Both the position numbers and the translations under genes were made by a program. 64,000 nucleotides of DNA, taken from assembly GCA_030587475.2 (NCBI GenBank), contig JAUQYZ020000253.1:10553-74552 (forward strand), given 5' to 3'. The DNA comes from Candidatus Sigynarchaeum calidifontis. GTDB taxonomy: Archaea; Asgardarchaeota; Lokiarchaeia; Sigyniarchaeales; Sigyniarchaeaceae. Of this stretch, positions 12,002 through 60,333 are shown one piece after another; position 1 is the stretch's first letter; every line of letters begins with the position of its first letter. The notes under the pieces are model-generated. The model worked only from the letters and a program-made list of their open reading frames with translations, did no database searches and was not told the DNA's origin.

Positions 12002-12421
12002 TCAGCTCGTCTTGATGATCTCGATGTCCACGGCCTTGAACTGGGGGATCTTCTGGAATCTCTCCTTGATGGTGCTCATTATATCGCTACCCTGCATCTC
12101 CACGTAGGCCTCGTAGCAGCACTCCTTCTCGTGAAAGCAGATCCCGCTGGTATGGACGGTCGTGATACGCAGGTCGTAGATGATGTCGGCGATGCTCTTC
12201 ACGGTCTGGGGAGAGAACTCGGTCAGATGCACGACGATCTTCAGCACCTCCTTGGCCTTGCAAGGGATGATGGAGATCTTCATGTTGTCTGGGCGGGAGT
12301 TGAAGATAACGAGGTAACTACTGGCCTCCGCGGTAAACTGGCGGAGTGCTTCCGGCGGAATCACCAGCGTGGTGAGGTTTTCTCGCGTGAGCATGATACC
12401 CGTCGATATATGCTGGCTCAT
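12002..12421 (-). CDS. ACT-domain protein with a possible N-terminal AbrB-like segment
   Basis: TLVIPPEALRQF resembles AbrB. C-terminal beta-alpha-beta-beta-alpha-beta pattern (KIVVHL...SIADIIYDLRITTVHTSG...YEAYVE...IKERFQKIP.FKAVDI). Start at ATG 12421 avoids overlap with the upstream gene. Confidence 0.6.
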   Translation of the reverse strand: MSQHISTGIMLTRENLTTLVIPPEALRQFTAEASSYLVIFNSRPDNMKISIIPCKAKEVLKIVVHLTEFSPQTVKSIADIIYDLRITTVHTSGICFHEKECCYEAYVEMQGSDIMSTIKERFQKIPQFKAVDIEIIKTS

Positions 12422-12440
12422 TTCTAGTTCATCCCTTCTC

Positions 12441-13892
12441 TCAATCTTTTCTAATGCGATCCTTGTCGACGCCATCATTATCTTTTTTCAACCGATCAGC
12501 GTCGATTCCGGATTTCTTGATGAATTTGCTCGTGATTTTATCGACGATCACGTCGAACGGCGAATCATCGAGTAGCCCAGCGCTAGTGCTTGTAACCGGT
12601 GCGTCAGCCTGCTTCTGCTCCTTGGCCGGGGGTACGAAAGCAGGTGGCGATCCGGCCATCATGTCCTCGCCAGGAAACAAGTCCTTCAAGTCCTCGCGCA
12701 CATCCGCGGCAACTTGCGGGGGAATGAATGGCCGCGGGATCCGGGCGATCTTTTCCTTGTCTGGCAGGGCGTTTTGTATGTATTCGGGAAATTGATCCAC
12801 GATATCGATGTCCGTCTTGAGCATAACATAGACCGTTCCTTGATATTCGAATTCATCGATGATATTGTCATTTTTGAGGTCCTCGATCACGTTGATCTTC
12901 GTGGCGACGACCGGTCCCTGGCGCAAGATGGCCCCGATCTTGGCCTTCGGGATCGGCATCTTCCGCAGCTCGGAGATGAGGTTGTAATGCTTCGGCATCG
13001 CCATGGCCGAGAACAGCTTGAGCTTGTCCGCATCATCCTTGTCGGACTTGTAGTTGCTGAAATACGCACCCACGAGGCTGATATAGTGCTCGATGACCGG
13101 CCGCGGCAAGTCGACCTGGTCGGCATTATCGAAGAGCTCCATCGCGCACGCCGGCGGAACCCGGTGCACGTCGATGTCTTTCACGAGGATGGCGTAGGTC
13201 TCTGGCCCGATCTTGTTGATGACGATGAATTTTTGCTCCTCGAGCATGGAAATGATCTTGTCGAAGTCCCTGTTGAAGTGCTGCTCCTCGAACCACTGGC
13301 GCAGCTCGTTATAGCGAACGGGATGCTTGGAAAGCTTGCGGATCGTGTTGTAGATCGCCGGGTTGACCATCAAGTTCGCGATGATCTCCTCGTGGCTTTT
13401 CTGCCGGATCTCTTCCTTCGTGGAATAATAGAGCTCCTTGAGCCACTTCATGACGATGGCGTAGCTCTGGTTCAGCTCAGCGTCGCTTTCGCTTGGGATG
13501 ATCGATTCTGAGCCTGGTGCAATTTTGGGAGAATGGTAGAAAGCTTTGAATAAGTCCGCCCGTCCGTGCATCTTGGTCACAAAATCGGTAATCCATGAAA
13601 GAATTTCGAGCTCCTTATCCGAGCTAGGCTTTTCCTTGAAAATAATAGAGCACATCAGCATTTCCTTGAGACCCCGCGCCCAGTCACTCTTGATCTCGAA
13701 ATAATAATTGAGGGACGTCGCGAAATCCTTGGTATTCAAGGAATGCCAGAACCAGCCCTCGTTCGTCGTTTGATCGAAGATCTGGTTCAGTGTCATCTTC
13801 TCCTCCTCGCCGACCTTCTCGGGGTACTCCATGTAGACTGTGGGCCCGATTTTCCGGTCGAAATAGCTTAACGCGACGATGAGCTCTGCCAT
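12441..13892 (-). CDS. folliculin/NPRL2-like longin (uDENN) protein with two winged-helix-like repeats
   Basis: N-terminal IVALSYFDRKIGP and YYFEIKSDWARG. Two internal repeats (YNTIRKLSKHP...MLEEQKFI...YAILVKDIDV and YNLISELRKMP...DLKNDNII...YVMLKTDIDI). Low-complexity tail. Confidence 0.7.
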   Translation of the reverse strand: MAELIVALSYFDRKIGPTVYMEYPEKVGEEEKMTLNQIFDQTTNEGWFWHSLNTKDFATSLNYYFEIKSDWARGLKEMLMCSIIFKEKPSSDKELEILSWITDFVTKMHGRADLFKAFYHSPKIAPGSESIIPSESDAELNQSYAIVMKWLKELYYSTKEEIRQKSHEEIIANLMVNPAIYNTIRKLSKHPVRYNELRQWFEEQHFNRDFDKIISMLEEQKFIVINKIGPETYAILVKDIDVHRVPPACAMELFDNADQVDLPRPVIEHYISLVGAYFSNYKSDKDDADKLKLFSAMAMPKHYNLISELRKMPIPKAKIGAILRQGPVVATKINVIEDLKNDNIIDEFEYQGTVYVMLKTDIDIVDQFPEYIQNALPDKEKIARIPRPFIPPQVAADVREDLKDLFPGEDMMAGSPPAFVPPAKEQKQADAPVTSTSAGLLDDSPFDVIVDKITSKFIKKSGIDADRLKKDNDGVDKDRIRKD

Positions 13893-14256
13893 TCTCAGGA
13901 TCTCTTCATTTCTTCACACATAAAGCCCCGTAGGACGAGGGCCACGCGACATGGCCCGTGATCGATGATGCGTGGATAGTCGGTTTCTCCGTGTATCGTA
14001 TAGCTAAGCAAATAGCACGATAAATAGTTAAGCGCGCGTGACGTGGTGCCACGTTCGAGTCATCCATGAGGGGATTATCGAGCCCCTAAAATGCCCCGTT
14101 GCCCCCCGATCGTGCCCCCCACATCCCGCTGACACACAAATTCATTGCGCATTGTAACTTACATTTACTTGATAGTGGTTGATAATAGCTGGCATGAAAA
14201 TCTTTTACACGGAAAACCGATGATGTTAATTCCATAATTCTATTTGGTGCTCTTAA

Positions 14257-15201
14257 TTGAGTGGAGTGAAAATCCTTTTTGCCGGTCTTGATAGTGCAGG
14301 AAAAACTTCTTTCCTGAACGCGCTGGAGGAGAAATACAGCACTTTACCGAATATCAAACCCACGTTTGGCCCAGACCGGCGCGAGTTTTCGATTTTCGGC
14401 TTCACGATCTCGAACTGGGACCTCGGCGGTCAGGAGACGTATCGAAAGGAATATATCCAAGAAAAGGAGCGTTATTTCTCCAGCCTGAACGCCCTCTTCT
14501 ACGTGGTGGACATCCAAAACACGCGGCGGGACGACGAGGCGTTCGGGTACTTGAAATCGATCATCGACGTGCTCGACGAGTTCAAGGAGAATCCGGCAAT
14601 CATCGTGTGCTGGCACAAGTGCGACAAGGACCTCGAGGCCAAGCCGGAGACGGTCGACCGCATCGCGAAGCTGGAAAACCGGCTAGCCATGACCATCGGC
14701 ACGCGCAAGGCCAAGACGTTCAGGACCAGCATCTTCGACAAGTGGACGCTGCTCAAGGCGTTCTCGCAAGGCCTCCTTGCGGTCTCGCCCAAGACCATGA
14801 TCATCGAGTCCCAGCTCAAGGACTTCGCGCGCAAGACGTTCTCCAGCGCCGTGATGGTCCTCGATTCCAACCACTTGCTCCTGGGTTCGCACACGACGTC
14901 ACCTGCCTTGCAAGAGGTCTGCGAGGCCATCGTCCCGCATTTCGCGGTCGCTGCGGAGCGCGTCGGCCAGTACGACATCAACTTGCTGAACCTCGTGCTG
15001 AGCCTCAAGCCGGGCAAGTACTACGCCGACCTCATCCAGGGCAAGGACATGGTCATCTTGTTCATCCCGCTCAAGGTGGGCACGTTGACCTTCTCGGTGC
15101 TCTCGCTCACGAAGAACCCGAAGACCCTCAAGCTGCTGCTCAAGCACAGCGACGCTCTCGCCAGCAACATGGAGGACATCATCAAGTCATTCTATTTCTA
15201 G
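14257..15201 (+). CDS. Rag/Gtr-like (Arf-related) GTPase with a C-terminal roadblock-like domain
   Basis: GLDSAGKTS, KPT, WDLGGQ, Rag-type G4 HKCD and G5 RTSIFD, TLLKAFS, then about 135 aa of roadblock-like CTD (AVMVLDSNHLLLGS). TTG/GTG start uncertain. Confidence 0.85.
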   Translation: MSGVKILFAGLDSAGKTSFLNALEEKYSTLPNIKPTFGPDRREFSIFGFTISNWDLGGQETYRKEYIQEKERYFSSLNALFYVVDIQNTRRDDEAFGYLKSIIDVLDEFKENPAIIVCWHKCDKDLEAKPETVDRIAKLENRLAMTIGTRKAKTFRTSIFDKWTLLKAFSQGLLAVSPKTMIIESQLKDFARKTFSSAVMVLDSNHLLLGSHTTSPALQEVCEAIVPHFAVAAERVGQYDINLLNLVLSLKPGKYYADLIQGKDMVILFIPLKVGTLTFSVLSLTKNPKTLKLLLKHSDALASNMEDIIKSFYF

Positions 15202-15218
15202 AATCCAAGCGAGCGTTT

Positions 15219-17402
15219 TCAAGGGATGCAAGGCGGTTCGCAGCCCCGATCGCGAGCCTGGAGGGCGCGGGTCACCGCGCGCTTCAGCCCCTTGAGATCT
15301 GGGGTGAGGACGCCGTTGAGCGCGGCGAACACCGAATTGGCGAGGGTTTCGAGCCGCGCAGCCTTGGGCATTCCTTCCACGAGCGGTAGCACGCGGGCAA
15401 TTTGCTCCTCGACGCGGGTATGCAAGGGTTGTAAATGTTCGCCACCGCACTTCTCGGCATCTCGAAAGAACCAGCCTTGTTTTTCTATCCAGACATAGCC
15501 CGGATCTTCGTGCAAGAAACGATCGAGGGGGCGGCTCATGTCCGGCGGCATGAACCCCATCTCCACGAGCTGGAGGTCGAGCAAGGAGAGCAAGGAACTG
15601 AACGGGACCGGTTCCCCGCGGCGTGAGAGGATCGAGTCGATGGCTTGCTTCAAGACGGCGCCCTCGTCGGCAATCCTTCGCAGGCCCGGACCGGTTGCCG
15701 TGAACGGCTTCACGAAGGTGATGATGTAGTCCCCGGTCGGGCTGCCAGCCGCGTGCAACAAGGATTTCTCCGACGGGCGGGGCGGGGGCTGGTACACGGT
15801 TTGCTGGAACGAGAAGCCGGAATCGAGCATGCCATCGTAGAGCAAGCCGCGCACGCGAGCATCGGTGTCGTGGAATGTCACGGTCATGTACCGCCCCGGC
15901 TTGAGAACACGAAAGCATTCACGAAAGGTAGCACCAAGCATGGCCTTGTACGTGCCGAAATCCTTGCCTTGTCCCGCGTTGACCGTGATCTCGTTATGGA
16001 ACGCGTCTTGCAACACGTGCGCCAAATCATGCGGGTGTTGCCATGCGAGGAAAAACGCGGCGAGTTCGGCGTATTGGATCGAGTCGCCGTACGGCGGGTC
16101 GGTGAAGATGTAATCGATCGACGCGTCAGGGATCCCCGCCAATTGCTGTGAATGACGCGTTTCGACGAGCGCCGTTTTTCCCTTGTTGGCGAAGAAATCG
16201 GCCTCGCTCGCAGCGATTTCCAGGACGGCGGGCTCGATCTCGTCGAGAACTCGCCAGCCCGCTGCGACCGATGTCTTGCGCGACAGCCACCAGCATGCCG
16301 GGTCCTCGATGCACACCTTGCACCAGCGCTGAGCGCCATCCTCCCAGCCCGACTTCGCGCGCAGCCCGTTCAAGATCTTGGCGACCCGCTCCCGGTAACC
16401 GCCCGCAACGTTCACTTCGAAGTATTCCGTTGGGTTCCAGAAGAAATGATGCGTCCACGATCCGACCTCGTACTTGCCGAGTGCCCGTCGCTCGCGCTGC
16501 TTGATGACCCAGACCATCTTGCTCGCTTGGGGAAGCATGCTGGAGAACGTGAAGCGCAGCATGTCCTTGACCGCTCTCTGCCGATCATCTTCCGCCGGGA
16601 TCGCCTCGATCGCCTTCCAAAACGCGTGCACCGCGATCAAGTTACGTGGCGTGAATAAATTACGGAGCCGCGGGTCTTGCCGCATGCCATGCCGCAGCTG
16701 CAAGAACGAAAAGCCGTTGGGATAGACCAGTGGCATGTCAAGGGACGGCAAGTCGTCGATCACTTGCTTGTACGCCGCGCTTTTTGCCAGCTCCGCCTGG
16801 GATGATGCCTCGCCATGCGATGGGTTCCCAGTCGACGTTCCGCACCTGCTGCACTGGCAGTAAAACCGGTACGGCTGGCTGACCCGGCGAGCGATCGATA
16901 ACCCGGTCATCCCACACGCGCTGCACGTGAATGCTGCGTCCTTGTTTCGAGGGTTGGCTGGCAAGTCGAGAAGATTTCCGCAACGACATTCCACCACGTC
17001 TCGCCAAAGCACGTGCGTGATCGTTGCAAGTTTTTCACACGCCGGGCACGATATAGAATAAAGACATTCGATGGATGGGGAGACCTGGTCATAAATGGAC
17101 TTCGCCAACCGCTCGAACTCGGTATAATCGACGCGGGCAATGGTGTTTCTAGAAATAAAGGTCGCGAGAGGGTTGGTGTCGAAGGAGATGACGCGCCGCC
17201 CAAGCCGAAGTGCCTCGTTCAGCGTGACGCCCGAACCACCGAACGGGTCTAATACGACCTCGCCCGGCCTGGAATAATTCGTGATATACGCCGCGACGAT
17301 GTTATATGGCTTCCTCGACCAGAATTTGTGCATCAAATACTCGGGCGTATGGTTATGCGGAAAAATTGGCCGTGCGATGTGATCCTGGCGCATCGGGGTC
17401 AT
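15219..17402 (-). CDS. amino (N6A/N4C) DNA methyltransferase with a zinc-ribbon insertion
   Basis: MHKFWSRKP, VLDPFGGSG (motif I), several CxxC, FTDPPY (motif IV), ECFRVLKPG. ATG at 17402 overlaps the upstream stop (ATGA). Confidence 0.88.
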   Translation of the reverse strand: MTPMRQDHIARPIFPHNHTPEYLMHKFWSRKPYNIVAAYITNYSRPGEVVLDPFGGSGVTLNEALRLGRRVISFDTNPLATFISRNTIARVDYTEFERLAKSIYDQVSPSIECLYSISCPACEKLATITHVLWRDVVECRCGNLLDLPANPRNKDAAFTCSACGMTGLSIARRVSQPYRFYCQCSRCGTSTGNPSHGEASSQAELAKSAAYKQVIDDLPSLDMPLVYPNGFSFLQLRHGMRQDPRLRNLFTPRNLIAVHAFWKAIEAIPAEDDRQRAVKDMLRFTFSSMLPQASKMVWVIKQRERRALGKYEVGSWTHHFFWNPTEYFEVNVAGGYRERVAKILNGLRAKSGWEDGAQRWCKVCIEDPACWWLSRKTSVAAGWRVLDEIEPAVLEIAASEADFFANKGKTALVETRHSQQLAGIPDASIDYIFTDPPYGDSIQYAELAAFFLAWQHPHDLAHVLQDAFHNEITVNAGQGKDFGTYKAMLGATFRECFRVLKPGRYMTVTFHDTDARVRGLLYDGMLDSGFSFQQTVYQPPPRPSEKSLLHAAGSPTGDYIITFVKPFTATGPGLRRIADEGAVLKQAIDSILSRRGEPVPFSSLLSLLDLQLVEMGFMPPDMSRPLDRFLHEDPGYVWIEKQGWFFRDAEKCGGEHLQPLHTRVEEQIARVLPLVEGMPKAARLETLANSVFAALNGVLTPDLKGLKRAVTRALQARDRGCEPPCIP

Positions 17403-36821: not shown

Positions 36822-37462
36822 TTGTCATTACACCGTCGCATGCACGGCGGCCTGCAAACCGAAAAAAACATGCAATTCCCGCACCCACGCGGCATCCATT
36901 CGAAGACGGGCTAGCTCGCCTGGTCACGCTAGCCCCGGGATGCTTTTCCCCGCCTTTCAGAGCGAGGCCAACAATGCTCATCTTTCATAAACTTGCACGC
37001 GAGGACTATTCTTCTACCGCGTTTGTATTGATTCCGTGAAACAACATGTGGTGTTGGCGTGAATCAAGTAAACGTGATGGGATGTGTCGAATGTGAGTAA
37101 TTATCGGGAATTGGTGTTTTTTATTCGGATATTCGATCCGTCTGCAAATTCTTTGTGTTTGTTATTGTTTTATCGAACCGTTTTCTGGGTTCCACGAGTA
37201 ATCGTGAATATGACTGTATGCACGATGATTTAACGTGATTCGGGTGAGGGATTTACCTTTGTCTTGGGGAATCCCTACGTGGGTATATAATAAACAAATA
37301 TACATAAACATTGGTTTGATCAAAACATCGCGGCCACGACTCCCGCGAAGATATCCCGAATTCGATACCTTTAACTCGACAACGAGATTCCAGGATCCTA
37401 GCCAGATATCATCAAGAATTGCCAGGACAAGCATTTTCACGCGGGTCATTTTCGTGATCTCC

Positions 37463-38488
37463 ATGTCTCCAAAATTGATATTTTTCGGCGGCAAGGGTGG
37501 CGTCGGGAAATCGACGACATCAGCAGCAACGGCCGTTTATCTCGCCAAGCTTAGGCCCGATAAGAAAATTTTTCTCATTAGTTTTGATATCGCCCATAAT
37601 TTAGGAGACCTGTTTAACATGGAGATCGGGGATAAGATCACCCAGGTTTTGCCGAATTTATGGGCGATGGAACCGGATGCCGAGCGATATACCGAGGATT
37701 TTGTCAAGGTGTTCGTCGAGAAAGCGAAAAAACTCGCCCTCGACATGCCACTGGTGAAGAAACTCACGAACCTGGAGCAGTATATCGAAGAAAGCTTTTC
37801 CGCTGCATCAATCCCACTCGCAGTGAAGAATTCTATCTTTTTTGACCAGATCTTGGAATCAGAAAATGATTTTGACATGTTTATCGTCGACATGCCGCCT
37901 ACAGGCAACATGGTCTCGATCTTCGAGGTTCCAAAGACGACAATGCAGGTTTTCTTGAAGAGCACGCTGGAGACCATGGACAAGGTGCTAGAGTTCGTCG
38001 CGGCCATGCGCAGGCTGAATCCGGCAAATTGGTTCCGTCCTGGTGCAACCGAGCGGCGAAAGAATCAGGCAGCCGAGCTCCTTGGGATGCTCAAGGAACT
38101 CGACCGGCGCAACGATCACATCATGCGCATGCTCAAGACCATGTCGTCTCTCCGTTTCGTGACCATCGCCGAGCGTCCGAGCTACGAGGAGATCCGGCGT
38201 GCTGCCGATCTCGTGAAAAAATACGTGCCGCTCGACGGCGTGGTCATCAACAAGTTGAACCACGAAGGAATCGATTGCAAGTATTGTGCCACGGAGACCG
38301 TCCACCAGAAGAAATATGTCAAGTTGATCGAGGAGGACGAACACTTCAGGGGCAAAAAAATATGGCAAACCTGGCGCATGGAGGACGAGGTTATCGGGAT
38401 CGACAAGCTCGAGGAATTTGCCAAGTCATTGTACAAGGACGACACGTTCGAGATGATCCTTCGCCCGTCGCGACCAGGCGACGTTTGA
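37463..38488 (+). CDS. ArsA/Get3 (TRC40)-family ATPase
   Basis: FGGKGGVGKST, SFDIAHNLGD, VDMPPTG, VINKL, CKYC; start at ATG 37463. Confidence 0.88.
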   Translation: MSPKLIFFGGKGGVGKSTTSAATAVYLAKLRPDKKIFLISFDIAHNLGDLFNMEIGDKITQVLPNLWAMEPDAERYTEDFVKVFVEKAKKLALDMPLVKKLTNLEQYIEESFSAASIPLAVKNSIFFDQILESENDFDMFIVDMPPTGNMVSIFEVPKTTMQVFLKSTLETMDKVLEFVAAMRRLNPANWFRPGATERRKNQAAELLGMLKELDRRNDHIMRMLKTMSSLRFVTIAERPSYEEIRRAADLVKKYVPLDGVVINKLNHEGIDCKYCATETVHQKKYVKLIEEDEHFRGKKIWQTWRMEDEVIGIDKLEEFAKSLYKDDTFEMILRPSRPGDV

Positions 38489-49053: not shown

Positions 49054-49500
49054 TTATAACCCGTCGGAGCTGAAAAGATCCTTCAGGTCCTCCATTGCGG
49101 CCGCGTTCGATGATGAAAGCATCTTTTTCAACGTCTTGCCAAGCAGCGGGGCAAATTTCTTCATGGATGCTCGCACGAGACCTATTTGGATGTCCTTGTC
49201 GGAGATCACGCCGAGCACGCCCGCGTCCTCGCACGCCACGGCGAACCTGAAACCATTCTTGAACTCGTTGATCTGGATCTCGAGCCCCGAAAACTCGAGG
49301 GAATTTCCCTCCTCCTCGCCCGCCTGGAACACGGCACCCATAATCGCGCCGACCGCTTCAAGATCGAGTTGCTTGAACGCGTACTTGCTGAAATTGGCGA
49401 TCATCATGCCCGTCCGGTCCATTAATATGACATGCGTTATTCCAGACACGGATTGACCAATTTGCTCGAGTATCTGGTGGATGGTTTCCATACTGGACAT
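49054..49500 (-). CDS. roadblock/LC7 (MglB/LAMTOR-like) protein
   Basis: GITHVILMDRTGMMIA...AVGAIMGAVF...INEFKNG...GVLGVI....QIGLVR. Confidence 0.85.
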   Translation of the reverse strand: MSSMETIHQILEQIGQSVSGITHVILMDRTGMMIANFSKYAFKQLDLEAVGAIMGAVFQAGEEEGNSLEFSGLEIQINEFKNGFRFAVACEDAGVLGVISDKDIQIGLVRASMKKFAPLLGKTLKKMLSSSNAAAMEDLKDLFSSDGL

Positions 49501-49788
49501 GTGACCAGCCGGCAGGTGTTCATCCAAATACAAATGGGCTATTTAATAAATGCAAATAAAACCTATTAAATCTCTTCTTTATGTCACATTTAACCTTTTC
49601 TGAGTCATTTGTGGTAACAGAAAGATTGATCGACGGTTTTTTTCTCGTTTCTGGACATGGCGAGCCCTCAGCAACTCGTGAAGGTGCATGTCGATGGAAC
49701 GGGACCAGCCTATCAACGAGGAACAGTCTTGTTATAACAGCAGAATACAAAAGCCATATAACCGATCGAAAAACAAAGTACCCCGGTA

Positions 49789-51060
49789 ATGACCGCGATG
49801 GCGTCCGAGATCATCTGCATCGGCTTCAATTGCCGCCCGATCGCCCAGAAGGTATCGGAAGCCGGATATCGCCCGATTGTGATCGATTATTTTGGCGATC
49901 TCGACATTCATCCATGCGCCGCGGAAGGCCATTATTTCCTGGAAGAATCAAGCGATCCGAAGGACGCGGAGCATTTTAAGGCATGGGCGCTGGCCACGCT
50001 CGACCGCCTTGCTCGGTCGCGGGGGGGCAAAAAGCCGCTTATTCTCCCCGGCAGCGGCTTCGACGACGAACCGGAGGCATGGGCGAAATTTACCAGCCTG
50101 GGCCGCGTACTGGGTAGTAGTCCCGAGGCGATCAAGCGGGCGAGAAACTTGAATACCATCGCGGACTTGTTGTGGGAAACCCCGAGCACCATCATCGTCC
50201 CGAAAACGAGGCACGTGACCATCGACGCTGCCACGGAGCCCACGACGATGTCCCGCGAGATCCACGGCGAGCTTTCCTTTCCTGTCGTCGCCAAGCGTAC
50301 CCGCACTGCCGGTGGGGCGGGCATTGAATTTGTCCAGAAAACGACATCGCTCGAGGAAGTATTCCGGCGCGTGAAAGAAGATTTACAAGGCAAGGCAGGC
50401 ACGTCTGTATCATTCAATATCCAGGAATTCGTCGGAGGAGCTGAAGCCCGCGATGCAAGCGTTCTCGCCATTAATGGTCGTGTCGTGTGCAAGACCCTCC
50501 AGGTCATCGGCGATGCGGCACTGCACGCGCCGAAGCGATTCTCGTACTGCGGCAACACCATACCCTTCGATACCGGGGATCCTTCCCTCGATCATTCAAT
50601 TGATTTACTGGTCGCGATGCTCCACCGGGATTTCGGGCTCGATGGCCTCTACGGGCTCGACATGGTGCTCGCGAAGGGGAAGGGATACCTCGTCGAGGTC
50701 AATCCACGCGTGCCAGGTAGCACCGAGCTGGCTTCCGTCTCGGTTGGCCGCAACTTGATCGCCGACCACGTGGCATCCTTCCTTGCCCCCGGCAGCCTTC
50801 CCGGCACGTACACGCCGGCACGTCATGCGATCAAGCGGATCCTCTTCGCCGGGAAGGATTTCACCATGCCAGCCCTCGACACGCTCGGTATCCATGGCAA
50901 ACTGCATGACATCACGCCGCCCGGTACCCAGGTGTCCCGAGGGATGCCGGTCGTGACCTACATGCACCACGGCCCGCTGGATGCTGCTGGAAGCATCGAC
51001 GTGGCGGCGAGGCAAGACATCAAAGCAATCTATGCATTCCTCGAACGGGACAGACCATGA
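49789..51060 (+). CDS. ATP-grasp superfamily ligase (archaeal type)
   Basis: GFNCRPIA, IDYFGDLD, GSGF, AGGAGI, IQEFVGG, FSYCGN, GLYGLD, VEVNPR.PGS. Confidence 0.85.
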   Translation: MTAMASEIICIGFNCRPIAQKVSEAGYRPIVIDYFGDLDIHPCAAEGHYFLEESSDPKDAEHFKAWALATLDRLARSRGGKKPLILPGSGFDDEPEAWAKFTSLGRVLGSSPEAIKRARNLNTIADLLWETPSTIIVPKTRHVTIDAATEPTTMSREIHGELSFPVVAKRTRTAGGAGIEFVQKTTSLEEVFRRVKEDLQGKAGTSVSFNIQEFVGGAEARDASVLAINGRVVCKTLQVIGDAALHAPKRFSYCGNTIPFDTGDPSLDHSIDLLVAMLHRDFGLDGLYGLDMVLAKGKGYLVEVNPRVPGSTELASVSVGRNLIADHVASFLAPGSLPGTYTPARHAIKRILFAGKDFTMPALDTLGIHGKLHDITPPGTQVSRGMPVVTYMHHGPLDAAGSIDVAARQDIKAIYAFLERDRP

Positions 51061-51887
51061 CCGCGTGGCACCTCACTTTCCTCGGGACAGCCGCCAGCGC
51101 CGTGTCCAAGGCACGGAACCCGACGAGCATGCTACTCACGATCGATGGCAGGCATCTCCTCGTCGAGTGCGCGGAGGGCACCACCCGTCGGCTCGTGGAG
51201 CTCGGCATCGATATCCGGGACATCGTGGCCGTTTATATATCGCACGGTCATAATGATCACGTCAGCGGAATTGTCACCTTCCTGTGGCAGAACGTCCTCG
51301 TTGCCAGGCGAACCAAGCCACTCTGCATCATCGGCCCAGGTTACGTCATCGAAACCGTCAAGAAAATGATCGACATGATGGGCACTCCGGCCGGATTCTT
51401 CTCGTTCGAGCTCGTGTACGAGCCGCTGGACGAGCAACATCTCGGTGAACCGTGCGAGATCCCGGGCCTCGCGGCGGGCGGGCACGTCACGCGGCGGCAC
51501 GCCCGTTCGGTGCACGACCCGCCTGCCAGGGCAATCCGAATCGACATCGCTGACCCGACAGGCAGGGTCATCGTATCGCTCTGCTATTCCTCGGACACGA
51601 GCCCGACCGGCGAGGTCGCGACCCTCGCTACGGGCTGCGAGTATCTCGTCCACGAGGCGACCATGTCCGACGAGGAGGAGAAGGCGGCCACCCGGTTCAA
51701 CCATTCGACCCCGTCGGGCGCCGGCCGGGTTGCTACCAACGCGGGCGCGAAGCACCTCGTGATCGTCCACTATTCCGTGTTTCTCGAGGGCAAGGAAAGC
51801 GAGATCATCACGGGAGCAAAAAAAACATTCGCCGGCGACGTGATCGTCGCCAAGGATCTCATGGGATTACCGCTGCAGAAGAGATAA
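51057..51887 (+). CDS. ribonuclease Z-like metallo-beta-lactamase-fold protein
   Basis: LTFLGT, R.PTS, ISHGHNDH, YSSDT, LVHEAT, HST, LVIVHYS, AKDL. Confidence 0.8.
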   Translation: MTAWHLTFLGTAASAVSKARNPTSMLLTIDGRHLLVECAEGTTRRLVELGIDIRDIVAVYISHGHNDHVSGIVTFLWQNVLVARRTKPLCIIGPGYVIETVKKMIDMMGTPAGFFSFELVYEPLDEQHLGEPCEIPGLAAGGHVTRRHARSVHDPPARAIRIDIADPTGRVIVSLCYSSDTSPTGEVATLATGCEYLVHEATMSDEEEKAATRFNHSTPSGAGRVATNAGAKHLVIVHYSVFLEGKESEIITGAKKTFAGDVIVAKDLMGLPLQKR

Positions 51888-51901
51888 GATGAAGGATTTG
51901 C

Positions 51902-52666
51902 TCATGGCTTGATGAGTTCCTTGATGCGCACGACGTAACGCATCAAGTTGGAGCTGCCACTTGCCGGTATCGATATTGCAAGCAAGCGGGCCTCGTCGAG
52001 CACGTGGATGATGATGCTTTGCTGTTCACCGATGATGGTCGTGAACTCCGCGTCCTCGCCCGTGATCAAGTTGTTCACGTTGAAGATCGCCGATACGAAA
52101 GCAGAGAGCCGGGCCTCGTCGATGTTGTCGCTCTGAATTTTTATCGGCAGGCCGTCCCTCGTAACGATGGCGTACATCTTCGCGTCGGGAATGGCAACTT
52201 TAATCCTGTAAAAAATGTCGCCGTAGTTTATATCGGATGACTCGATGATCGCGGAAATCTTGAGGGCGAGCTCGTTGAGCTCGGACACGTACGGGTCGAT
52301 GCCCTCGAGCTCGACGACTTGCCTGTCCAGGATGGCGCCAAACGAGATGTTCCTCGTGAGGAAGCATGCCAGGATGTACGTGGGGCCGTACGTGATAACG
52401 TGCTTGAGGTTGTCCTCGGCGATCTTGGACGATGCCTTGGACGATATGAAGAGGATAGACGTCGTCGCGGCGACCATCTCCTTGGCATTATATTTCTTGA
52501 TGTCTGGCTTGATGCAAGAGGCCACGATGTTGCCCCCGTGCGTGCCGACTGACAATGCTTTTATCGCCAGACCTTTCTTGATCTTCTCGTCGAGCAATTC
52601 CTCGACCCGTTCTATGAAATCCTTCTGGCTTTCCGGTATCTTTGACACGGCTAGTTCACCATGCAC
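51902..52666 (-). CDS. tandem (two-domain) roadblock/LC7 protein
   Basis: Two roadblock-like units: ALSVGTHGGNIVAS... and YAIVTRDGLPI...RLSAFVSAI. Confidence 0.75.
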   Translation of the reverse strand: MHGELAVSKIPESQKDFIERVEELLDEKIKKGLAIKALSVGTHGGNIVASCIKPDIKKYNAKEMVAATTSILFISSKASSKIAEDNLKHVITYGPTYILACFLTRNISFGAILDRQVVELEGIDPYVSELNELALKISAIIESSDINYGDIFYRIKVAIPDAKMYAIVTRDGLPIKIQSDNIDEARLSAFVSAIFNVNNLITGEDAEFTTIIGEQQSIIIHVLDEARLLAISIPASGSSNLMRYVVRIKELIKP

Positions 52667-52675
52667 GCTATAACC

Positions 52676-53311
52676 CTATTCAAGCTCTCGCTTGAGCTTC
52701 TCCAGCTCCTTTTTGACGTCCTCGGCAGTTGGCTTGTTGGCTTCCAGGTCCTCGACGGCAATGTTCTCGGGCATCTGGCCTTCTGGAGTTCCCGCCAGCT
52801 TGGCACCCATGTCGAGCGCGACCTCGGCTTGCATTTCCTCGAGCTCCCTTGTGACCTGGTCGTCGGCGAGCACGTCTTCGGTCGTGTCGCCCATGGCCTC
52901 CGCTGCCTCGTCGATGACGGCCCGGGCCTCCTCCGAATCCGCCACGATGCTCTCGACGTTGAGGGCCTCGATGACCTTCGCGTACCTGTTTAACACGCCC
53001 ACCGCGGTCGACAGGGCCTTCGTCGCGTTCTCGATGGTCTCGGCTTGGTCGATCGCGTCCATTTGGTCGCTGAGTTTGCGTTGAATATTGTAAAGGTTCT
53101 CGATATCCTTTTCTTGCTTGAGTTTTTTCGAGAGATGCACCTTGGCAAGTTTTTCATTCTTCTGCGCCAGTGCGGCCATCGCTTTCTTCTTGAGATCGGC
53201 GATGACTTGCTCCTTTTTCTTTATGGACGCGTCAATCTTCTTAATGCTATCCTTGAGATCGAGAAATGCCGTGTCCTTGCCGATTTCTTTCTTCTTGAAA
53301 AGTTTCTTCAT
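52676..53311 (-). CDS. ESCRT-III Snf7-family (Vps20/32/60-like) protein
   Basis: Amphipathic MKKLFKKK, basic N-half with A..AL..KN..LAK.HL.KK, acidic C-half (VESIVAD..E, ELEEM..E), terminal helix EDVKKELEKLKRELE; start at ATG 53311. Confidence 0.85.
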   Translation of the reverse strand: MKKLFKKKEIGKDTAFLDLKDSIKKIDASIKKKEQVIADLKKKAMAALAQKNEKLAKVHLSKKLKQEKDIENLYNIQRKLSDQMDAIDQAETIENATKALSTAVGVLNRYAKVIEALNVESIVADSEEARAVIDEAAEAMGDTTEDVLADDQVTRELEEMQAEVALDMGAKLAGTPEGQMPENIAVEDLEANKPTAEDVKKELEKLKRELE

Positions 53312-53421
53312 GGTCGGTCGCTCGTGGCCGGACGACTGCTTATGGTCGGATGTTATATCAATGATGGAGCCTAATAACTTTAACATTACCGCCGAATTCG
53401 ACGATGTTAAGGTGAGCATCA

Positions 53422-54447
53422 ATGAACACAACAGTCGTGGGATCATTCCCCCTCGAAAACACGCCGGCCAATTTCGAGCAAGCGTTTCTCGACCAGGTGG
53501 ACGCGGGCATCACGATCCCGTGCTATCCCCAGTTGGTCGACATGAACCACCAGATCCTCGAGCCGTTGTTGAAAATCATCCCGGGCTTGAAGCTGGTGGC
53601 CAAGGAATTTCATTTTTCGGGTGATTTCAAGGCACCAAGGGATGTCGTGGCCACCGAGTACGGGAAGAAGGTCCTGGATATCTTGGAAAAAAAACCCGAT
53701 GTCAAGAAGCGCATCGCTGGCACCAAGGCTTGCCTCACGGGGCCCTTCACGCTGTGCTCGAACATCATCATGGACGACGCCAGCATCAAGGAAAAATACA
53801 AGCCGCTCTTGTTCCGCGAGACGCGTGCCCACCAGGTACCCGAGTTCGTGGAGGAGATGGCGGGTTACATCGCCCGCATCACGAAAGCCTACGCGGACAT
53901 GGGATTCACGATCGTCTCGATCGACGACCCGTTTCTCTCGCAAATCGTCGGCCGCCGCAAGATCCTGTTCCACGAGCGACCATTCATCTTGAAGGTATTG
54001 GATACCGCGGCGAAGAACCTGGCCAAGCAAGGCTCCCTCCACGTTTGCGGCGTGCTCAGCCCGCAGCTTCGCGACTTGCTGCTCGAGTCGTCCATTCACC
54101 ACCTCGACCACGAGTTCAAGACCTCGCCGCAGAACATGGAAATCTTCGACAAGCAAATGCTTGTCGACCACGGGAAGGTGCTCGCTTTCGGGAGCTTGCA
54201 AACGAATCCGGTGCCGATGCCGGGCAAGAAACCCGACGACGTGGTCGAGAGCGTCGATGAGGTTACCAAGCACCTCCAGGTCGCGAAAGAAAGATTCGGG
54301 GCCGAGAATTTACTGGTAAAACCGGACTGTGGCTTTGGTGGCATGAACGCGTTCGACCGGGCTTACGGGCCGGGGATCGGGCACGACATCGTGAAGAAGA
54401 AACTGAAGGTGATGACCACCGCCGTGAAAAAGGTCTTCGACGAGTGA
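53422..54447 (+). CDS. core (single-barrel) cobalamin-independent-type methionine synthase
   Basis: TTVVGSFP, QVDAGI, KACLTGPFTL, SIDDP, LHVCG, HEF, VKPDCG. Confidence 0.85.
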   Translation: MNTTVVGSFPLENTPANFEQAFLDQVDAGITIPCYPQLVDMNHQILEPLLKIIPGLKLVAKEFHFSGDFKAPRDVVATEYGKKVLDILEKKPDVKKRIAGTKACLTGPFTLCSNIIMDDASIKEKYKPLLFRETRAHQVPEFVEEMAGYIARITKAYADMGFTIVSIDDPFLSQIVGRRKILFHERPFILKVLDTAAKNLAKQGSLHVCGVLSPQLRDLLLESSIHHLDHEFKTSPQNMEIFDKQMLVDHGKVLAFGSLQTNPVPMPGKKPDDVVESVDEVTKHLQVAKERFGAENLLVKPDCGFGGMNAFDRAYGPGIGHDIVKKKLKVMTTAVKKVFDE

Positions 54448-56404: not shown

Positions 56405-56449
56405 AAAAAGTTCCTTGCAGTCCTATCACGGTCTTGCTTGCCGTCGGGA

Positions 56450-57922
56450 TTAGATGTATTCCTTTATGAGCCCCTTCACGTTGTCCCTGAATTCCGTGAG
56501 GTGCTTCTCGATCTTGTCGACAGCGGACTTGTCGGTCAAGAAAGCAAGGACGTAGACCTTGAAATCCTGGCAATCCAGGACGTGGAACGTGATGATCGTG
56601 TTCTCGATCATGTACGACGCACGGGTAGCCTTCCCGGAAACGAAGTTTTCGAAGTTGTTGTAAATCGCCGTGAAATGCGGGGCGCTGAGCTCGAAGAGCT
56701 TGCCCGATTCCTCGTCGACAGCGTAATCAGACATGATCAGGCCCTTCTCGTTGACGAGCAAGATGCCCCTCGCCCCCGATTGCTTGGCAAGCTTTTCGAG
56801 CTGGTAGCGGAAGATGTCGCGGTTCGGGCTGAGGGCCGCGAGGCCGTAAGAAAACGCTGTCGCGAGGCTATATGGCTCGAAGATCGACGTTTCAAAAAAT
56901 TTCACCGAGAAATCCTCCGACGCCGCGCTGAAGAGCTCGCGCGCCGCCTCGATGTTCTTTTTCAGCTTGACTTGACCGTCAGGCTCTTGGGGCGTCTCGC
57001 TCTTGTGCAAGCACAAGATGATGGGAGGGTTTTGCTCGAATTTTGCTAAAACGGCCAAGATTTGCTTGTAATAATCAACAGACTCCTCGAATCGCTTGTC
57101 ATCACGCACGTCGATCAAGTAAAAAAGCAAGTCAATGTCGAACAAATAAAGCTCGGCCGCGTCCTTGACATATTGTGTCCTGTAGCTATCTTGTCCCCCG
57201 AGATCCCAAATAGAAATTGTCAAACCCATGATAGCCGACTGGGATCTTGCTACCCCCTTGGTGGGCTGCACCTGGGCAAGGTTACTGTATTTCTTTTCAA
57301 GCCCGAGGATCATCGACGTTTTACCGCTGTTGTCGAGCCCGGCGAAAACGATCTTGAGACTGCGCTTGGATGATAAGGGATATGCAACCTTGCGCTCGGC
57401 GAATTCATTGATCGCCTTGAAAAGATCTACCATGACCGTTACAAACTCGTCTTGGGTCAGCATTTTCTTTATCCGGATCGCATGTTCGACGATGAGCGAT
57501 CGCAATTCAGCCATGTTGTCGTAGAAGAAGTTCTTGTGTTCCTCCAAGACCAGGATGGTGATCGTCGATGCCCGCGCGGAACCACGTGCGCCTTGGTCCG
57601 GGATGAGGAAAAAGTACGTCAAGCCATCCATCTTGATGTCGGGGAACGGAAGTATGCCAAAAGCCTTGATATCATCACGATCCCCTTCAGATTCTTGATA
57701 AACCCTTTCGCCCATGAGTAATGAAATACTCTTCATGCTGATGTGCAAAAAAGTGCCAAGATCAAGCGGAGGATTATATAATTCCTTTACGTTTTCCTTC
57801 TTGATGACCCTGATACCGTTCTCTTCATTTATGAGAACCATTTCTGGAATCGGCCCCTCATCGCCAAAAATACTAAGAATCAAGGCCTGGATGATTCGCT
57901 GGTTCTCATTCATTAATGCCAC
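56450..57922 (-). CDS. longin (FLCN/SMCR8-like) - Rag-like GTPase - roadblock fusion protein
   Basis: N-terminal LILSIFGDEGP...YFFLIPDQGARG; GLDNSGKTS, QPT, WDLGGQ, HKSE, ETSIFE; roadblock CTD GILLVNEKGLIM. Confidence 0.82.
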   Translation of the reverse strand: MALMNENQRIIQALILSIFGDEGPIPEMVLINEENGIRVIKKENVKELYNPPLDLGTFLHISMKSISLLMGERVYQESEGDRDDIKAFGILPFPDIKMDGLTYFFLIPDQGARGSARASTITILVLEEHKNFFYDNMAELRSLIVEHAIRIKKMLTQDEFVTVMVDLFKAINEFAERKVAYPLSSKRSLKIVFAGLDNSGKTSMILGLEKKYSNLAQVQPTKGVARSQSAIMGLTISIWDLGGQDSYRTQYVKDAAELYLFDIDLLFYLIDVRDDKRFEESVDYYKQILAVLAKFEQNPPIILCLHKSETPQEPDGQVKLKKNIEAARELFSAASEDFSVKFFETSIFEPYSLATAFSYGLAALSPNRDIFRYQLEKLAKQSGARGILLVNEKGLIMSDYAVDEESGKLFELSAPHFTAIYNNFENFVSGKATRASYMIENTIITFHVLDCQDFKVYVLAFLTDKSAVDKIEKHLTEFRDNVKGLIKEYI

Positions 57923-58145
57923 GACATTTCTTGATTTGGTTCAAAGATACACGGAGAGATCAAGAGGATTGAATATTTGTTCTGTTTTCATATATCTCTT
58001 AAAAGCCTTAAAATTATGTTTTGTACTCATCGCCACAGATCTGATAATACGAATACCACTTTTTAATAACTACCAGGGTTTGCACACAAGGCTTGGAATG
58101 TACATATGGAGATTATAAGCACGATCAATTAATTATTCTCTTTTT

Positions 58146-58466
58146 CTAAATAGGTGGTTCAAAAAAAACCTCTCGATCATTAAAGCCTTTCACGACCAAG
58201 TCTTTCATGCAAATCCCACAAGTGATCTTTTTCCCCACGGCTGGTTGGAATTGCGCTGGACCTTCACGAGTCCACCCAAAGATAAATCCACAATGCGTGC
58301 ATACACAATGCCTGTATCCAGAAACATCTGGAATAAAAGGTTCAGCACCTCGCCATCGGTTATCTCTGTTTTGAAATTCGATTTCCCAATCATCAATTCT
58401 CTTCACGATTAATTCAGCTTCACATTTTGGACAAATCGTGTTCATATCAATGTATATTTCATTCAC
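58146..58466 (-). CDS. small zinc-ribbon repeat protein (LysW-like fold, no EDWGE tail)
   Basis: Three CxxC motifs; internal repeat TICPKCEAELIVKRIDDWEIEF / ITCGICMKDLVVKGFNDREVFF; AT-rich. Confidence 0.6.
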   Translation of the reverse strand: MNEIYIDMNTICPKCEAELIVKRIDDWEIEFQNRDNRWRGAEPFIPDVSGYRHCVCTHCGFIFGWTREGPAQFQPAVGKKITCGICMKDLVVKGFNDREVFFEPPI

Positions 58467-58598
58467 ATCTTTATCCCACTCAAACCGGGCCCCACAAGAC
58501 GGGCATCGACATCGTCGGGGAAAGACGACCGTCGTGATAATTTCACCAGCCTATAACATTAATCCATTCATCGAATGATGAGAAAATTGCTTCTCTAG

Positions 58599-58632
58599 AA
58601 GACGGCGGAATTGTAAGACGGCGGCATCGTAA
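58599..58632. repeat. short imperfect tandem repeat (AAGACGGCGG x2, 16-nt period)
   Basis: AAGACGGCGGAATTGT followed by AAGACGGCGGCATCGT. Confidence 0.5.
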
Positions 58633-58651
58633 CATGTTTTTCCCCTCAGGT

Positions 58652-59746
58652 TTACTTCTGCGCCCCGAGTCGATCAAGTGACACGGTTCCCACGTAGATG
58701 TCATCGAGGAGATCGTGGTTCGATTTTTCCAGTGCCATGATTTCCACGAGCCCCTTGTGCTTGCCGCCAGCCAGGCCGTTCGCGATGAACGCCGCGCCTT
58801 GAGCGGCGGTCTTGGAAATGCGTGCTATGGATCCAACCGTGCGGACCGGGAAGGAAAACGGCTTTTTCAAGAAATTCACCAGTTGGCCGGCGATCTCATT
58901 CGACGCGCGCCCGGACACGATGATTTCCTTGATGCTGGACGGGTCAGAGAACGATGGTACAAGGGAAAAGATACCCTGGAGCATGTCATGGTAGAAACCT
59001 GACACCGCGTCCGCCGTGCGCTCGTCTTTCTTCGCCATCAAGAAAATCTCCTTCGGCGTGAGATCTTCGTGACCCACGATGGCTGACAGGCCCCCGCCGT
59101 AGATATCCTTTTTCGAAACGTGGTCGAGCAAGTAGGCGAGCTCGCCATCAAGGCGGCCCGCCGTGCCGAACCCCATGCCGCCCAGCGACCCGCCGATGCC
59201 GTCGACGATCTTGCCATTCTCCACGGCAATGTACGCGTTGAAACCGAAGCCCACCTCGACGAGAATGAAACATGTCGATGCGAGCGGGATGTTCAAGAAA
59301 CCCGCCTGGTCAACGATGGCTGCAGCAGCGGCACAAACCTTGTCCGCGGTACCCATGTCGATGCGGTTGTACTTGAAGCAGCGCTTGACGGTCTCGAGCT
59401 GCTTCACGCCCGGTATCACGTATCCCTTGATGCCCGCGTCCTTGAGCATGCGCAAGACCTTGCCGATGCCCATGACGTGGGGGTCGGAGGACCGGCGCAA
59501 GTTGGCCTTGGCGATATCGCTATCGGTCATGGCCGCGATCGGTTTCAGCGGGATCCCGTGCCCAGAAGGTGCCACGATCGTGTCGAGCGGCTCGTTGCTC
59601 TCGATGACTTGCAGCAGCTTCCGCGGCTCGGCCAGCACTTGTTTCGTGGGCACGGACACGTCGAGGAACACGTCGTCGCCCTCGAGACCCAGGATGTCCC
59701 ACGATCCCGACCCTGGATCGATCCCGATAACGCGCACGCGCGACAT
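58652..59746 (-). CDS. DUF1464-family ASKHA (butyrate kinase-like) protein
   Basis: IGIDPGS.SWD, APSGHG, IPGV..L, NRIDMGTADK, VE.G.GF, IVDGIGG, DGELAY, AAQGAA.IANGL.GG. Confidence 0.82.
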   Translation of the reverse strand: MSRVRVIGIDPGSGSWDILGLEGDDVFLDVSVPTKQVLAEPRKLLQVIESNEPLDTIVAPSGHGIPLKPIAAMTDSDIAKANLRRSSDPHVMGIGKVLRMLKDAGIKGYVIPGVKQLETVKRCFKYNRIDMGTADKVCAAAAAIVDQAGFLNIPLASTCFILVEVGFGFNAYIAVENGKIVDGIGGSLGGMGFGTAGRLDGELAYLLDHVSKKDIYGGGLSAIVGHEDLTPKEIFLMAKKDERTADAVSGFYHDMLQGIFSLVPSFSDPSSIKEIIVSGRASNEIAGQLVNFLKKPFSFPVRTVGSIARISKTAAQGAAFIANGLAGGKHKGLVEIMALEKSNHDLLDDIYVGTVSLDRLGAQK

Positions 59747-59794
59747 TAATAACTCTTAGCGATGGATAGTAGAAAAAAGGTTGGTAGTTCTCCA

Positions 59795-60333
59795 CCATGA
59801 ACCCCACGAGCAAGGGCAGATCCGGCGAAGTCGCCGCGATCGTCTACGCGGAGCTGATCGAGGAGGGAGCCACGCCGGTCGCGTGGTACCCGCCCGGCGA
59901 ATCGATTTCTTACATCGATCTCACCAACATCAGCCTCAAATCCATTTCGCTGCTCGTGGGCGACAAGCCGGATCACGCCCGACTCAACGATGCCCGGTTC
60001 ATCGTCGATCAAGAGAACGCTTTCGCCGTCATCCCGTTCCCAGATCAAGACGCCGTCGGGATCGCGTACATGTTCAACTACACGAACGTGGACGGGAAAA
60101 ACGTGATCTGCACGATCACGGCGACGGTTAACGCCAAGCTGCGCAATTTCTTGTTTGAAAAGCACGAGAACATAGAACAAATGCTCAGGTTCACCGCGTT
60201 CGAGGTCTTGAAAATCGTCATGCGCGAGAAGGCTTATAAAAAGGATGATCTCGTCTCGCGGCTCCAGTTACTCCACGAGAAGCTGACCAAGCTCGCGAAA
60301 GGCTAGGGGAGCCATGAATCCCACGAGCAAGGG
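59795..60333 (+). repeat. 22-bp direct repeat (21/22 identical) flanking the longin-like gene
   Basis: CCATGAACCCCACGAGCAAGGG at 59795-59816 and CCATGAATCCCACGAGCAAGGG at 60312-60333. Confidence 0.85.
59797..60306 (+). CDS. stand-alone longin-like protein, paralog of the N-domain of 56450-57922
   Basis: AIVYAEL.EEGATP, ISLKSISLLVG, FAVIPFPD, TITATV...NFLFE parallel ISMKSISLLMG, FGILPFPD, TITILV...NFFYD. Confidence 0.75.
   Translation: MNPTSKGRSGEVAAIVYAELIEEGATPVAWYPPGESISYIDLTNISLKSISLLVGDKPDHARLNDARFIVDQENAFAVIPFPDQDAVGIAYMFNYTNVDGKNVICTITATVNAKLRNFLFEKHENIEQMLRFTAFEVLKIVMREKAYKKDDLVSRLQLLHEKLTKLAKG

Follow-up and report, generated by a model that had tools for sequence, protein, structure and literature searches.

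Conserved linkage of an arginine-finger longin gene with a Rag-like GTPase gene in an Asgard archaeon

A stretch of 64,000 nucleotides from Candidatus Sigynarchaeum calidifontis, hereafter the window (G000:C209:10553-74552; the G000 assembly comprises 4.99 Mb in 269 contigs and is 89% complete), encodes two Rag-like GTPases together with longin, roadblock and ACT-domain proteins, and a first-pass annotation had proposed that these genes belong to a single proto Rag-Ragulator-GAP (GTPase-activating protein) signalling system. Every listed part is present, with seven genes at or near the places assigned to them, and the family assignments stand, but the genomic evidence does not support the single-system reading. 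We favour, with moderate confidence, three independently inherited gene groups, M1 (12002-15201), M3 (49054-52666) and M2 (56450-60306), of which M1 would comprise a GAP-like longin, a sensor and a Rag-like switch. The features of M1 are:

12002-12478, minus strand: ACT158, a small AbrB/MazE-like + ACT protein; likely start Met20, at about 12421
12441-13892, minus strand: LW483, 483 aa; arginine-finger longin, long helix, two winged-helix domains and a disordered tail
13893-14256, no strand: divergent intergenic region of 364 bp between LW483 and RagA314
14257-15201, plus strand: RagA314, 314 aa; Rag-like GTPase of the short form, with a GTPase and a C-terminal domain

The second Rag-like GTPase, RagB490, lies in M2. 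Assignments draw on a Pfam scan of all 135 window open reading frames (ORFs) of at least 125 aa, with the translations also read directly. Among close homologues, the source labels include Sigynarchaeota, Lokiarchaeia and Promethearchaeota, in keeping with an Asgard archaeon.

The longin, Rag-like and ACT proteins of M1

LW483 was modelled from a 30-sequence alignment (pLDDT 75.5). The model has longin topology at residues 4-119, followed by winged helices at 167-245 and 283-367; for the arginine-finger assignment, residues 1-122 were counted as the longin part. Five residues (G16, P17, A72, R73 and G74) are invariant in 30/30 homologues, and in the model the GP pair lies in the β1-β2 hairpin and the arginine in the β4-β5 loop. 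The top Foldseek match was 8dhb_J, from the active FLCN GAP complex (E 6.5e-4), and GATOR1 chains and FLCN in 6nzd/6ulg came next. Structural alignment by VIA-align gave the highest scores to the FLCN chain 8dhb_J (Z 13.4, rmsd 2.7 over 136 residues), 6nzd_H (Z 12.7) and the GATOR1 chain 9o5a_H, which we take to be NPRL2 (Z 12.4 over 189 residues, so that the match extends beyond the longin). A solved Lokiarchaeota longin (Z 12.0), Lst4 (Z 11.7) and C9orf72-SMCR8 (7o2w_A, Z 10.3) followed, and the longins of SNARE, TRAPP and AP proteins scored 9.7 or less. Both methods rank FLCN, GATOR1 chains, Lst4 and SMCR8/C9orf72 over other longins, and the fold of LW483, which has both the GP and the Arg motif, is most like that of the FLCN/NPRL2/SMCR8 class. 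A profile of the LW483 family had 0 matches among PDB (Protein Data Bank) sequences at E<=10. Scattered weak Pfam matches within the family (Afi1 in 3/30 members, best 0.0076; DUF1878 in 10/30) were treated as noise or, at most, as a lead.

Both Rag-like proteins match Gtr1_RagA as their best Pfam family (1.3e-25 and ~91 bits for each, cut-off 22; the two scores are 90.7 and 90.6 bits), and the G domain of each is nearer to Rag than to Arf or Sar. Against PDB sequences, the family profile of RagA314 found LokiRagO 8yl2 (2.3e-54), human RagA (1.2e-24) and Gtr1 (1.6e-22), with Sar1/Arf at ~1e-14 (Sar1 4e-14) and RagC at 4e-13 further down. RagA314 and RagB490 share 32% identity over 317 aa, C-terminal domain included. 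Within the genome each has the other as its closest paralog (156 bits; the runner-up scores 138), as is also the case in 3/3 relatives of the same family. The proposal of two paralogous Rag-like GTPases was thus confirmed by Pfam, by direct reading of the motif quoted for them and by the best-paralog scores. The C-terminal domain of RagA314 is predicted to be a roadblock from its alignment to the modelled roadblock of RagB490; Pfam matched Robl_LC7 in 0/27 members of the RagA314 family.

ACT158 had no match to a Pfam sequence family at E<=0.01. Its ESM Atlas model matches archaeal MazE/AbrB+ACT clusters (TM 0.65-0.68), in which the aligned part carries PF01842 (ACT) or PF22629 and the ACT fold occupies the C-terminal half. 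Because of this match we assign ACT158 an N-terminal AbrB-like domain and a C-terminal ACT domain; the first-pass annotation had named an ACT protein here, and the structure match bears it out while placing an AbrB-like domain in front. Among the cluster representatives of the ACT158 family, 7/74 are fusions in which an LW483-type longin stands in front of AbrB-ACT. These fused proteins are ~290-310 aa long, and their longin keeps the GP and W[AG]RG motifs. On contig C185 of G000, such a longin-AbrB-ACT fusion is head-to-head with another Rag-like gene (402 aa, Gtr1_RagA 1.1e-25), and the same arrangement of the fused module and a Rag-like gene is found in G001 and G002.

Conservation of M1 was followed at two depths. 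Three relatives from the same family, f1, were compared with G000: G001 (one contig), G002 (same genus) and G003. The arrangement of M1, with ACT158 and LW483 divergent from RagA314, is kept in 3/3 of them. ACT158 is directly downstream of LW483 in G000, G001 and G002 and is present as a fragment at the contig end in G003, and the divergent LW483/RagA314 arrangement is kept in all three relatives and in loci L021-L023. The wider set held the LW483 loci of the best 80 of 157 relatives (one genome per species), taken with 6-kb flanks; in 65/80 the upstream sequence extends for 3 kb or more. In 39/80 loci the opposite strand carries a RagA-like gene upstream of the longin gene. The gap between them is 129-290 bp in 3 of the 39 linked loci and 1.06-2.2 kb in the other 36, where 1-2 genes intervene (in locus L045, a HAD hydrolase and a CN hydrolase).

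As a control for neighbourhood, 25 window genes (590-28444) were searched in the same 80 loci, 77 of which are outside the f1 clade. In these 77 loci the RagA-like gene recurs in 36 and ACT158 in 1, and 22 other window neighbours recur in 0. In a tree of 81 longin proteins the linked state is found on several deep branches, with 8 changes needed, and the longin-linked GTPases form one clade (support 95). The association of Rag-like GTPase, arginine-finger longin and ACT protein is real and conserved locally, in M1.

In a wider sample of 121 genomes from the class, which was used for the distribution of both LW483 and the tandem-roadblock gene of M3, LW483 orthologues were found in 100 genomes, all of one order. 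Some LW483 orthologues have in-frame stops (one TGA in G002, one TAA in each of six genomes), and second copies in G010, G030, G036 and G047 have two TAA each; these may reflect alignment past the true stop, or broken copies.

A GAP-like role for LW483 and its alternatives

In the mechanism we propose, LW483 would be co-transcribed with ACT158, and the pair is divergent from RagA314. A search of sequencing runs found none of RNA that covers the locus, and only two DNA runs with a small share of its words. The longin of LW483 would dock on the GTPase domain of RagA314, where R73, acting as an arginine finger, would stimulate GTP hydrolysis and switch the Rag-like protein off, as NPRL2 does on RagA and FLCN on RagC. 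The ACT domain of ACT158 might bind a small metabolite, possibly an amino acid, thereby tuning the GAP activity. NPRL2 and NPRL3 carry winged helices, and those of LW483 may be protein-protein modules as they are there. M2 would be a variant complete in itself, with a longin of this kind fused ahead of the GTPase.

The layout of M1 can also be read as that of a regulator and its target. Two winged helices and an AbrB-like domain beside a divergent gene are a classic transcription-regulator layout, and under this reading LW483 and the AbrB-ACT protein would be ligand-responsive DNA binders controlling the divergent Rag-like gene, with the longin as a sensor or dimerisation domain. The divergent genes share the 364-bp intergenic region, the winged helices of LW483 match ArsR/SmtB-type repressors (Z 8.0-8.7), and the N-terminal half of ACT158 is the part that matches MazE/AbrB clusters. 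Across the LW483 family, however, the winged helices are acidic to neutral (median net charge -5 and 0), which would fit protein-protein roles somewhat better than DNA binding. The invariant residues are those of the longin GP and Arg motifs and not of a recognition helix, paralogous longins are fused directly to GTPases, and in 36 loci the longin gene is separated from the Rag-like gene by enzyme genes, which leaves no promoter to be shared. We consider this regulator-target arrangement quite improbable.

A second alternative keeps the longin on the GTPase and changes what it does there: the longins would be platforms, guanine nucleotide exchange factors (GEFs) of the TRAPP, Mon1-Ccz1 or DENN kind, or bifunctional proteins, as reported for MglB, and the conserved arginine would be structural. 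Statements here and below on Tran et al. (2024; PMC10933270), Liu et al. (10.1101/2020.10.19.343400) and PMC12290439 refer to the sections of those papers used here. Among regulators built on longin and roadblock domains, GEFs or scaffolds predominate (PMC10933270), a GEF role has been proposed for an Asgard DENN module (Liu et al., 10.1101/2020.10.19.343400), and the LW483 model also matches chains of DENND1, the Rab35 GEF, at Z 8.2. Yet the top structural matches of LW483 are three longin-GAP complexes, and the GP and Arg motifs that mark catalytic subunits are invariant, as described for GAP longins in PMC12290439. A GEF or platform role is unlikely in our judgement, and a GAP-like role of LW483 is the reading that we prefer.

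Several further observations weigh against that role, or against its being directed at a Rag-like partner. At the sequence level, Pfam Folliculin (PF11704) and NPR2 (PF06218) are matched by 0/30 members of the LW483 family at E<=1, and alignment of the LW483 and RagB490 longin families by hhalign is weak (probability 1.4%, E 0.038); it keeps the motif register, GP aligning with GP and ARG with ARG, and was used for register only. At the level of neighbourhood, 25 of the 80 loci have sufficient flank yet lack a Rag-like neighbour, among them an entire 20-row clade of the longin tree, and an ACT gene adjoins the longin gene in only 4/80 loci; the relatives behind these linkage counts are, moreover, not independent samples. 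In the G000 genome the LW483 type has 6 longins and the RagB-N/Lg169 type has 9; of these 15, 2 are fused to Arf-like, 6 to Ras-like and 1 to Rag-like GTPases. The longin class is therefore not Rag-specific, since the same families are also fused to Arf-like and Ras-like GTPases. Finally, the solved Asgard Rag-like proteins are titled homotetramer (8yl2) and monomer (8zla), not heterodimer.

The arginine is kept in 13/15 of the two-family longins in G000, the exceptions being the fusion on contig C198 and Lg169 of M2. Eight longin-GTPase fusions of the GP/Arg type (2 Arf-like, 6 Ras-like) lie on contigs C99, C95, C118, C8, C5, C10, C198 and C200.

M2, M3 and the question of a single system

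The features of M2 and M3 are:

49054-49533, minus strand: single roadblock protein of M3, with a Met at 49500
51902-52666, minus strand: tandem roadblock protein of M3, with two roadblock domains, 18-148 and 149-247 (jackhmmer)
56450-57922, minus strand: RagB490 of M2, 490 aa; Rag-like GTPase of the long form, with longin 1-180, GTPase 188-363 and roadblock 368-489
59797-60306, plus strand: Lg169 of M2, 169 aa; stand-alone longin without the GP and Arg motifs

The model of RagB490, built from 33 sequences (pLDDT 75.9), has longin topology at the N-terminus and roadblock topology at 368-489. Foldseek placed LokiRagO 8yl2 first (E 6e-22, TMt 0.73) and RagA and Gtr1 next; the full-length protein aligns with the latter two over 300-320 columns (TMt ~0.7), consistent with a C-terminal roadblock. 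G23, P24, A112, R113 and G114 are invariant in 33/33 homologues, with GP again in the β1-β2 hairpin and Arg in the β4-β5 loop of the model. Pfam Folliculin is matched in 32/33 family members at E<=1 (best 1.4e-5); RagB490 itself scores E 0.17 and 12.2 bits, below the cut-off of 23.3, and is not placed in that family by sequence. The RagB490 family comprises 447 proteins at E<=1e-30.

Lg169 is related to the N-terminal domain of RagB490 (26% identity, E 1e-9 by BLASTP), and its Atlas leads are NPR2- and Folliculin-bearing clusters (0.90 and 0.76). Its ARG column reads VDG, and that of its G001 orthologue REK. The first-pass count of two arginine-finger longins and one Arg-less longin holds at motif level because the motifs are invariant in the LW483 and RagB490 families and gone in Lg169; both arginine-finger longins have the motifs and the longin topology, but one of the two is the N-terminus of RagB490 and not a separate gene. 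M2, RagB490 together with Lg169, is kept in all three family relatives. Outside family f1 no stand-alone Lg169 was found: all matches were in ORFs of 258-504 aa. Most of these ORFs are 468-504 aa long, like RagB-like proteins, in which the query matches the N-terminus, and the pair of an Arg-bearing and an Arg-less longin is present only within f1. Lg169 probably arose as a local copy of the N-terminal domain of RagB and then lost both motifs, and it is a possible non-catalytic partner of the RagB490 longin. M2 as a conserved unit beyond the family was rejected, as in 4 genomes inspected for this the neighbours of M2 in the window do not recur near the RagB orthologues.

Other genes of the M2 region are noted here. 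Between RagB490 and Lg169 lie a DUF1464 protein (58652-59746, minus strand, 5.2e-78; 0 matches to PDB sequences at E<=0.01), whose place is kept in G001, and a 106-aa Cys-rich ORF (58146-58466, minus strand) that was not detected in G001. Lg169 is the first gene of a same-strand run (59797-63098, plus strand) that also encodes a pterin-binding/DUF4346 protein and a GTP cyclohydrolase of the FolE2 type; in the G001 counterpart (L102 8366-11627) the longin ORF and the one after it meet at 8902.

In M3, the single roadblock protein matches Robl_LC7 (2.5e-6, 27.6 bits, cut-off 23) and, below the cut-off of 25, the LAMTOR3 family MAPKK1_Int (3.2e-4, 21.0 bits); it also matches PDB 7f8m, a Robl_LC7 protein, at 5.9e-4. 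For the tandem protein, Pfam matches the C-terminal half (28.3 bits) and jackhmmer recovers both halves (5e-21 and 2.8e-16), with 0 matches to PDB sequences at E<=1. The single and the tandem roadblock of the first-pass annotation are both upheld by these searches. The tandem gene is single-copy in 102/121 sampled genomes, all of one order, and the two genes, kept in all three family relatives, are 2.5 kb apart in G001 and G003. No GTPase gene was seen as a neighbour of M3 in the loci examined, and no LAMTOR-specific family was matched above cut-off, only the generic Robl_LC7, with no search aimed at a LAMTOR1-type anchor. M3 is a conserved pair of a roadblock and a tandem-roadblock protein without a genomic tie to any GTPase.

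A Snf7/ESCRT-III-family gene (52676-53446, minus strand, Snf7 9.7e-15) ends 10 nt before the tandem roadblock gene, on the same strand. The complete Snf7 orthologue of G001 belongs to the RagB block, while a 145-aa Snf7-like ORF (L101 9240-9674, 3e-13) stays beside the tandem roadblock gene.

Under the single-system reading, all seven genes would act together: the Rag-like paralogs would heterodimerise by way of their C-terminal domains and dock on the roadblock proteins, and the longin pair and the ACT sensor would regulate them. All part types are indeed present, and the mutual best-paralog relation of the two Rag-like proteins, here and in 3/3 relatives, is in keeping with it. The G000 genome has 12 strong Rag-like loci among 30 PF04670 matches, 19 roadblock proteins and 4 ACT158-like proteins; only 3/12 Rag-like loci are within 5 kb of any longin, ACT or roadblock gene, and the window has 2 of these 3. 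A genome-wide census of the parts counted 48 genes, of which 7 fall in a 48.3-kb span of the window against 0.47 expected, and 7 were reached in 1/20,000 random trials. This excess is due to tight local groups and vanishes once the genes are merged into loci. With genes at most 5 kb apart merged, there are 42 loci, of which the window holds 2, and in 99.6% of the trials random placement reached a maximum of at least 2. If the window is taken instead as three modules, a maximum of at least 3 has a random probability of 39%. The comparison of local density with the genome background, put forward in the first-pass annotation as a check, thus gave a gene count above chance and a locus count equal to random placement.

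Gene neighbourhoods elsewhere bear on the same question. Short Rag-like genes are found 1-9 kb from long ones in G036, G108, G118 and G058 (L116, L117-L118, L119 and L120), as would suit a pair of Rag-like subunits of one system. These short forms, however, belong to a clade other than that of RagA314, so that there is no neighbourhood support for a RagA314-RagB490 pair, and RagA314 was rejected as the short partner of RagB-type genes. In these order members a second long paralog is often near the short and long Rag-like genes, which are themselves candidate short/long pairs.

The position of the groups in other genomes also weighs against a single system. In G001 the three gene groups are at 113.5-116.9, 362.5-365.4 and 885.5-889.2 kb, that is, 250-775 kb apart. 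One G001 block reads TFIIB-MazG-roadblock-ATPgrasp-MBL-tandem roadblock and another, elsewhere, Snf7-MetE-like-HD-RagB-DUF1464-Lg169-pterin-GCHY; with these two blocks apart in G001, synteny breaks precisely at the junction of the tandem roadblock and Snf7. Among the three family relatives, the tandem roadblock is near RagB only in the same-genus G002. In three closed genomes from the order, coordinates put 1.1, 1.4 and 3.05 Mb between the longin gene and the tandem-roadblock gene. Of the 21 genomes that have both a RagB-like gene and a tandem roadblock gene, 0 have them within 50 kb of each other; the two are on separate contigs in 20 and are separated by 1.29 Mb in the remaining one. The 48-kb co-location is specific to the genus, since the modules are far apart in other genomes. 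Together with the chance-level density of loci, the separate short-form clade, and roadblock proteins that are linked to no GTPase gene and match LAMTOR3 below the Pfam cut-off, this makes one Rag-Ragulator-GAP system very unlikely. The reservation entered with the proposal, that the genes are dispersed, that such paralogs are many and that co-location may be chance, was well placed and settles the matter; the window-wide cluster should not be taken as an operon-like system.

M1 among known systems, and other genes in the window

The closest known counterparts of M1 are GATOR1 (NPRL2-NPRL3-DEPDC5), which acts on RagA, and FLCN-FNIP, which acts on RagC (7t3b, 8dhb, 6nzd, 9o5a); the longin fold of LW483 best matches these chains. 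The likeness extends to the invariant GP hairpin and loop arginine, to the winged helices after the longin and to the RagA/Gtr1-like neighbour. M1 differs in having neither a DENN domain nor a DEPDC5-like partner, the partner in operon or fusion being an AbrB+ACT protein. No heterodimeric longin partner was identified for M1, and LW483 lacks a Pfam Folliculin or NPR2 match. The likeness of the window to Ragulator (LAMTOR1-5) consists of a full-length roadblock and a two-roadblock protein; it differs in that the window roadblocks have no LAMTOR-specific match above cut-off and no Rag-like genomic link outside the genus.

Among Asgard archaea, longins with a GP motif and an arginine finger have been reported with the partner GTPase left open (PMC12290439), and the published proposal is that such longins are forerunners of eukaryotic longin GAPs (PMC12290439; Liu et al., 10.1101/2020.10.19.343400). 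Both longin families of the window share this motif pair at the same structural places and are Asgard-specific. The difference lies in the neighbourhood, with a Rag-like neighbour here in 39/80 loci and AbrB-ACT fusions in 7/74 representatives, whereas the sections of those papers used here give no partner, neighbourhood or ACT link. Liu et al. (10.1101/2020.10.19.343400) also described NPRL2-like longins and longin-Rag fusions in Asgards, and an operon of a roadblock, a Rab-like GTPase and a DENN protein, with most such genes lacking conserved neighbourhoods. Tran et al. (2024; PMC10933270) described Rag-like longin-GTPase-roadblock architectures in MK-D1, where, as a rule, no operon joins a GTPase gene to roadblock or longin genes and regulators cannot be matched to GTPases by layout. 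RagB490 has exactly the published architecture of the Asgard Rag-like proteins (PMC10933270; 8yl2 LokiRagO, 8zla LokiRagM), with 8yl2 as its best structural match; M1 is, at the neighbourhood level, a conserved exception to the layout stated for MK-D1 GTPase genes.

Parts lists for Asgard archaea are thus already published, and the longin-Rag-ACT linkage of M1 was not found in print. No publications were found for the LokiRagO, LokiRagM and LokiRag structure entries, and none tying an Arg-finger longin to a Rag-like neighbour or an ACT domain, although supplements (Data S1 of PMC12290439; the tables and Fig. 5c of Liu et al.) may list the family. M1 names a concrete longin-Rag pair where, in the sections used here, Tran et al. 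(PMC10933270) saw no matching from layout, and it bears on the question in PMC12290439 of which GTPase class the Arg-finger longins serve. The AbrB-ACT fusions add a candidate sensor, and M1, as three small soluble proteins, is a testable candidate for a GAP-sensor-GTPase unit. More tentatively, M1 and its fused paralog could be extant relatives of the system that gave rise to eukaryotic amino-acid sensing upstream of TOR, with an ACT module that binds a metabolite and is coupled directly to an NPRL2/FLCN-like arginine-finger longin, which in turn switches a RagA-like GTPase off. We hold this to be doubtful; if it were true, sensor, GAP and Rag would have been joined in a three- or two-gene unit predating TOR, Ragulator and lysosomes.

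Two further genes of the window are eukaryote-like: a PAC4-type proteasome assembly chaperone (10667-11050, minus strand, 2.2e-8) and an ArsA/Get3-type ATPase (37235-38488, plus strand, 5.5e-51). Just outside M1, the plus-strand region 6687-10608 encodes a membrane protein of 527 aa that has two stretches of the Frag1/DRAM/Sfk1 family (1.5e-11); next come a NosD/beta-helix protein, a GTPase of the Ras family (9229-9798, 6.2e-34) and an ORF of 244 aa for a multi-pass membrane protein.

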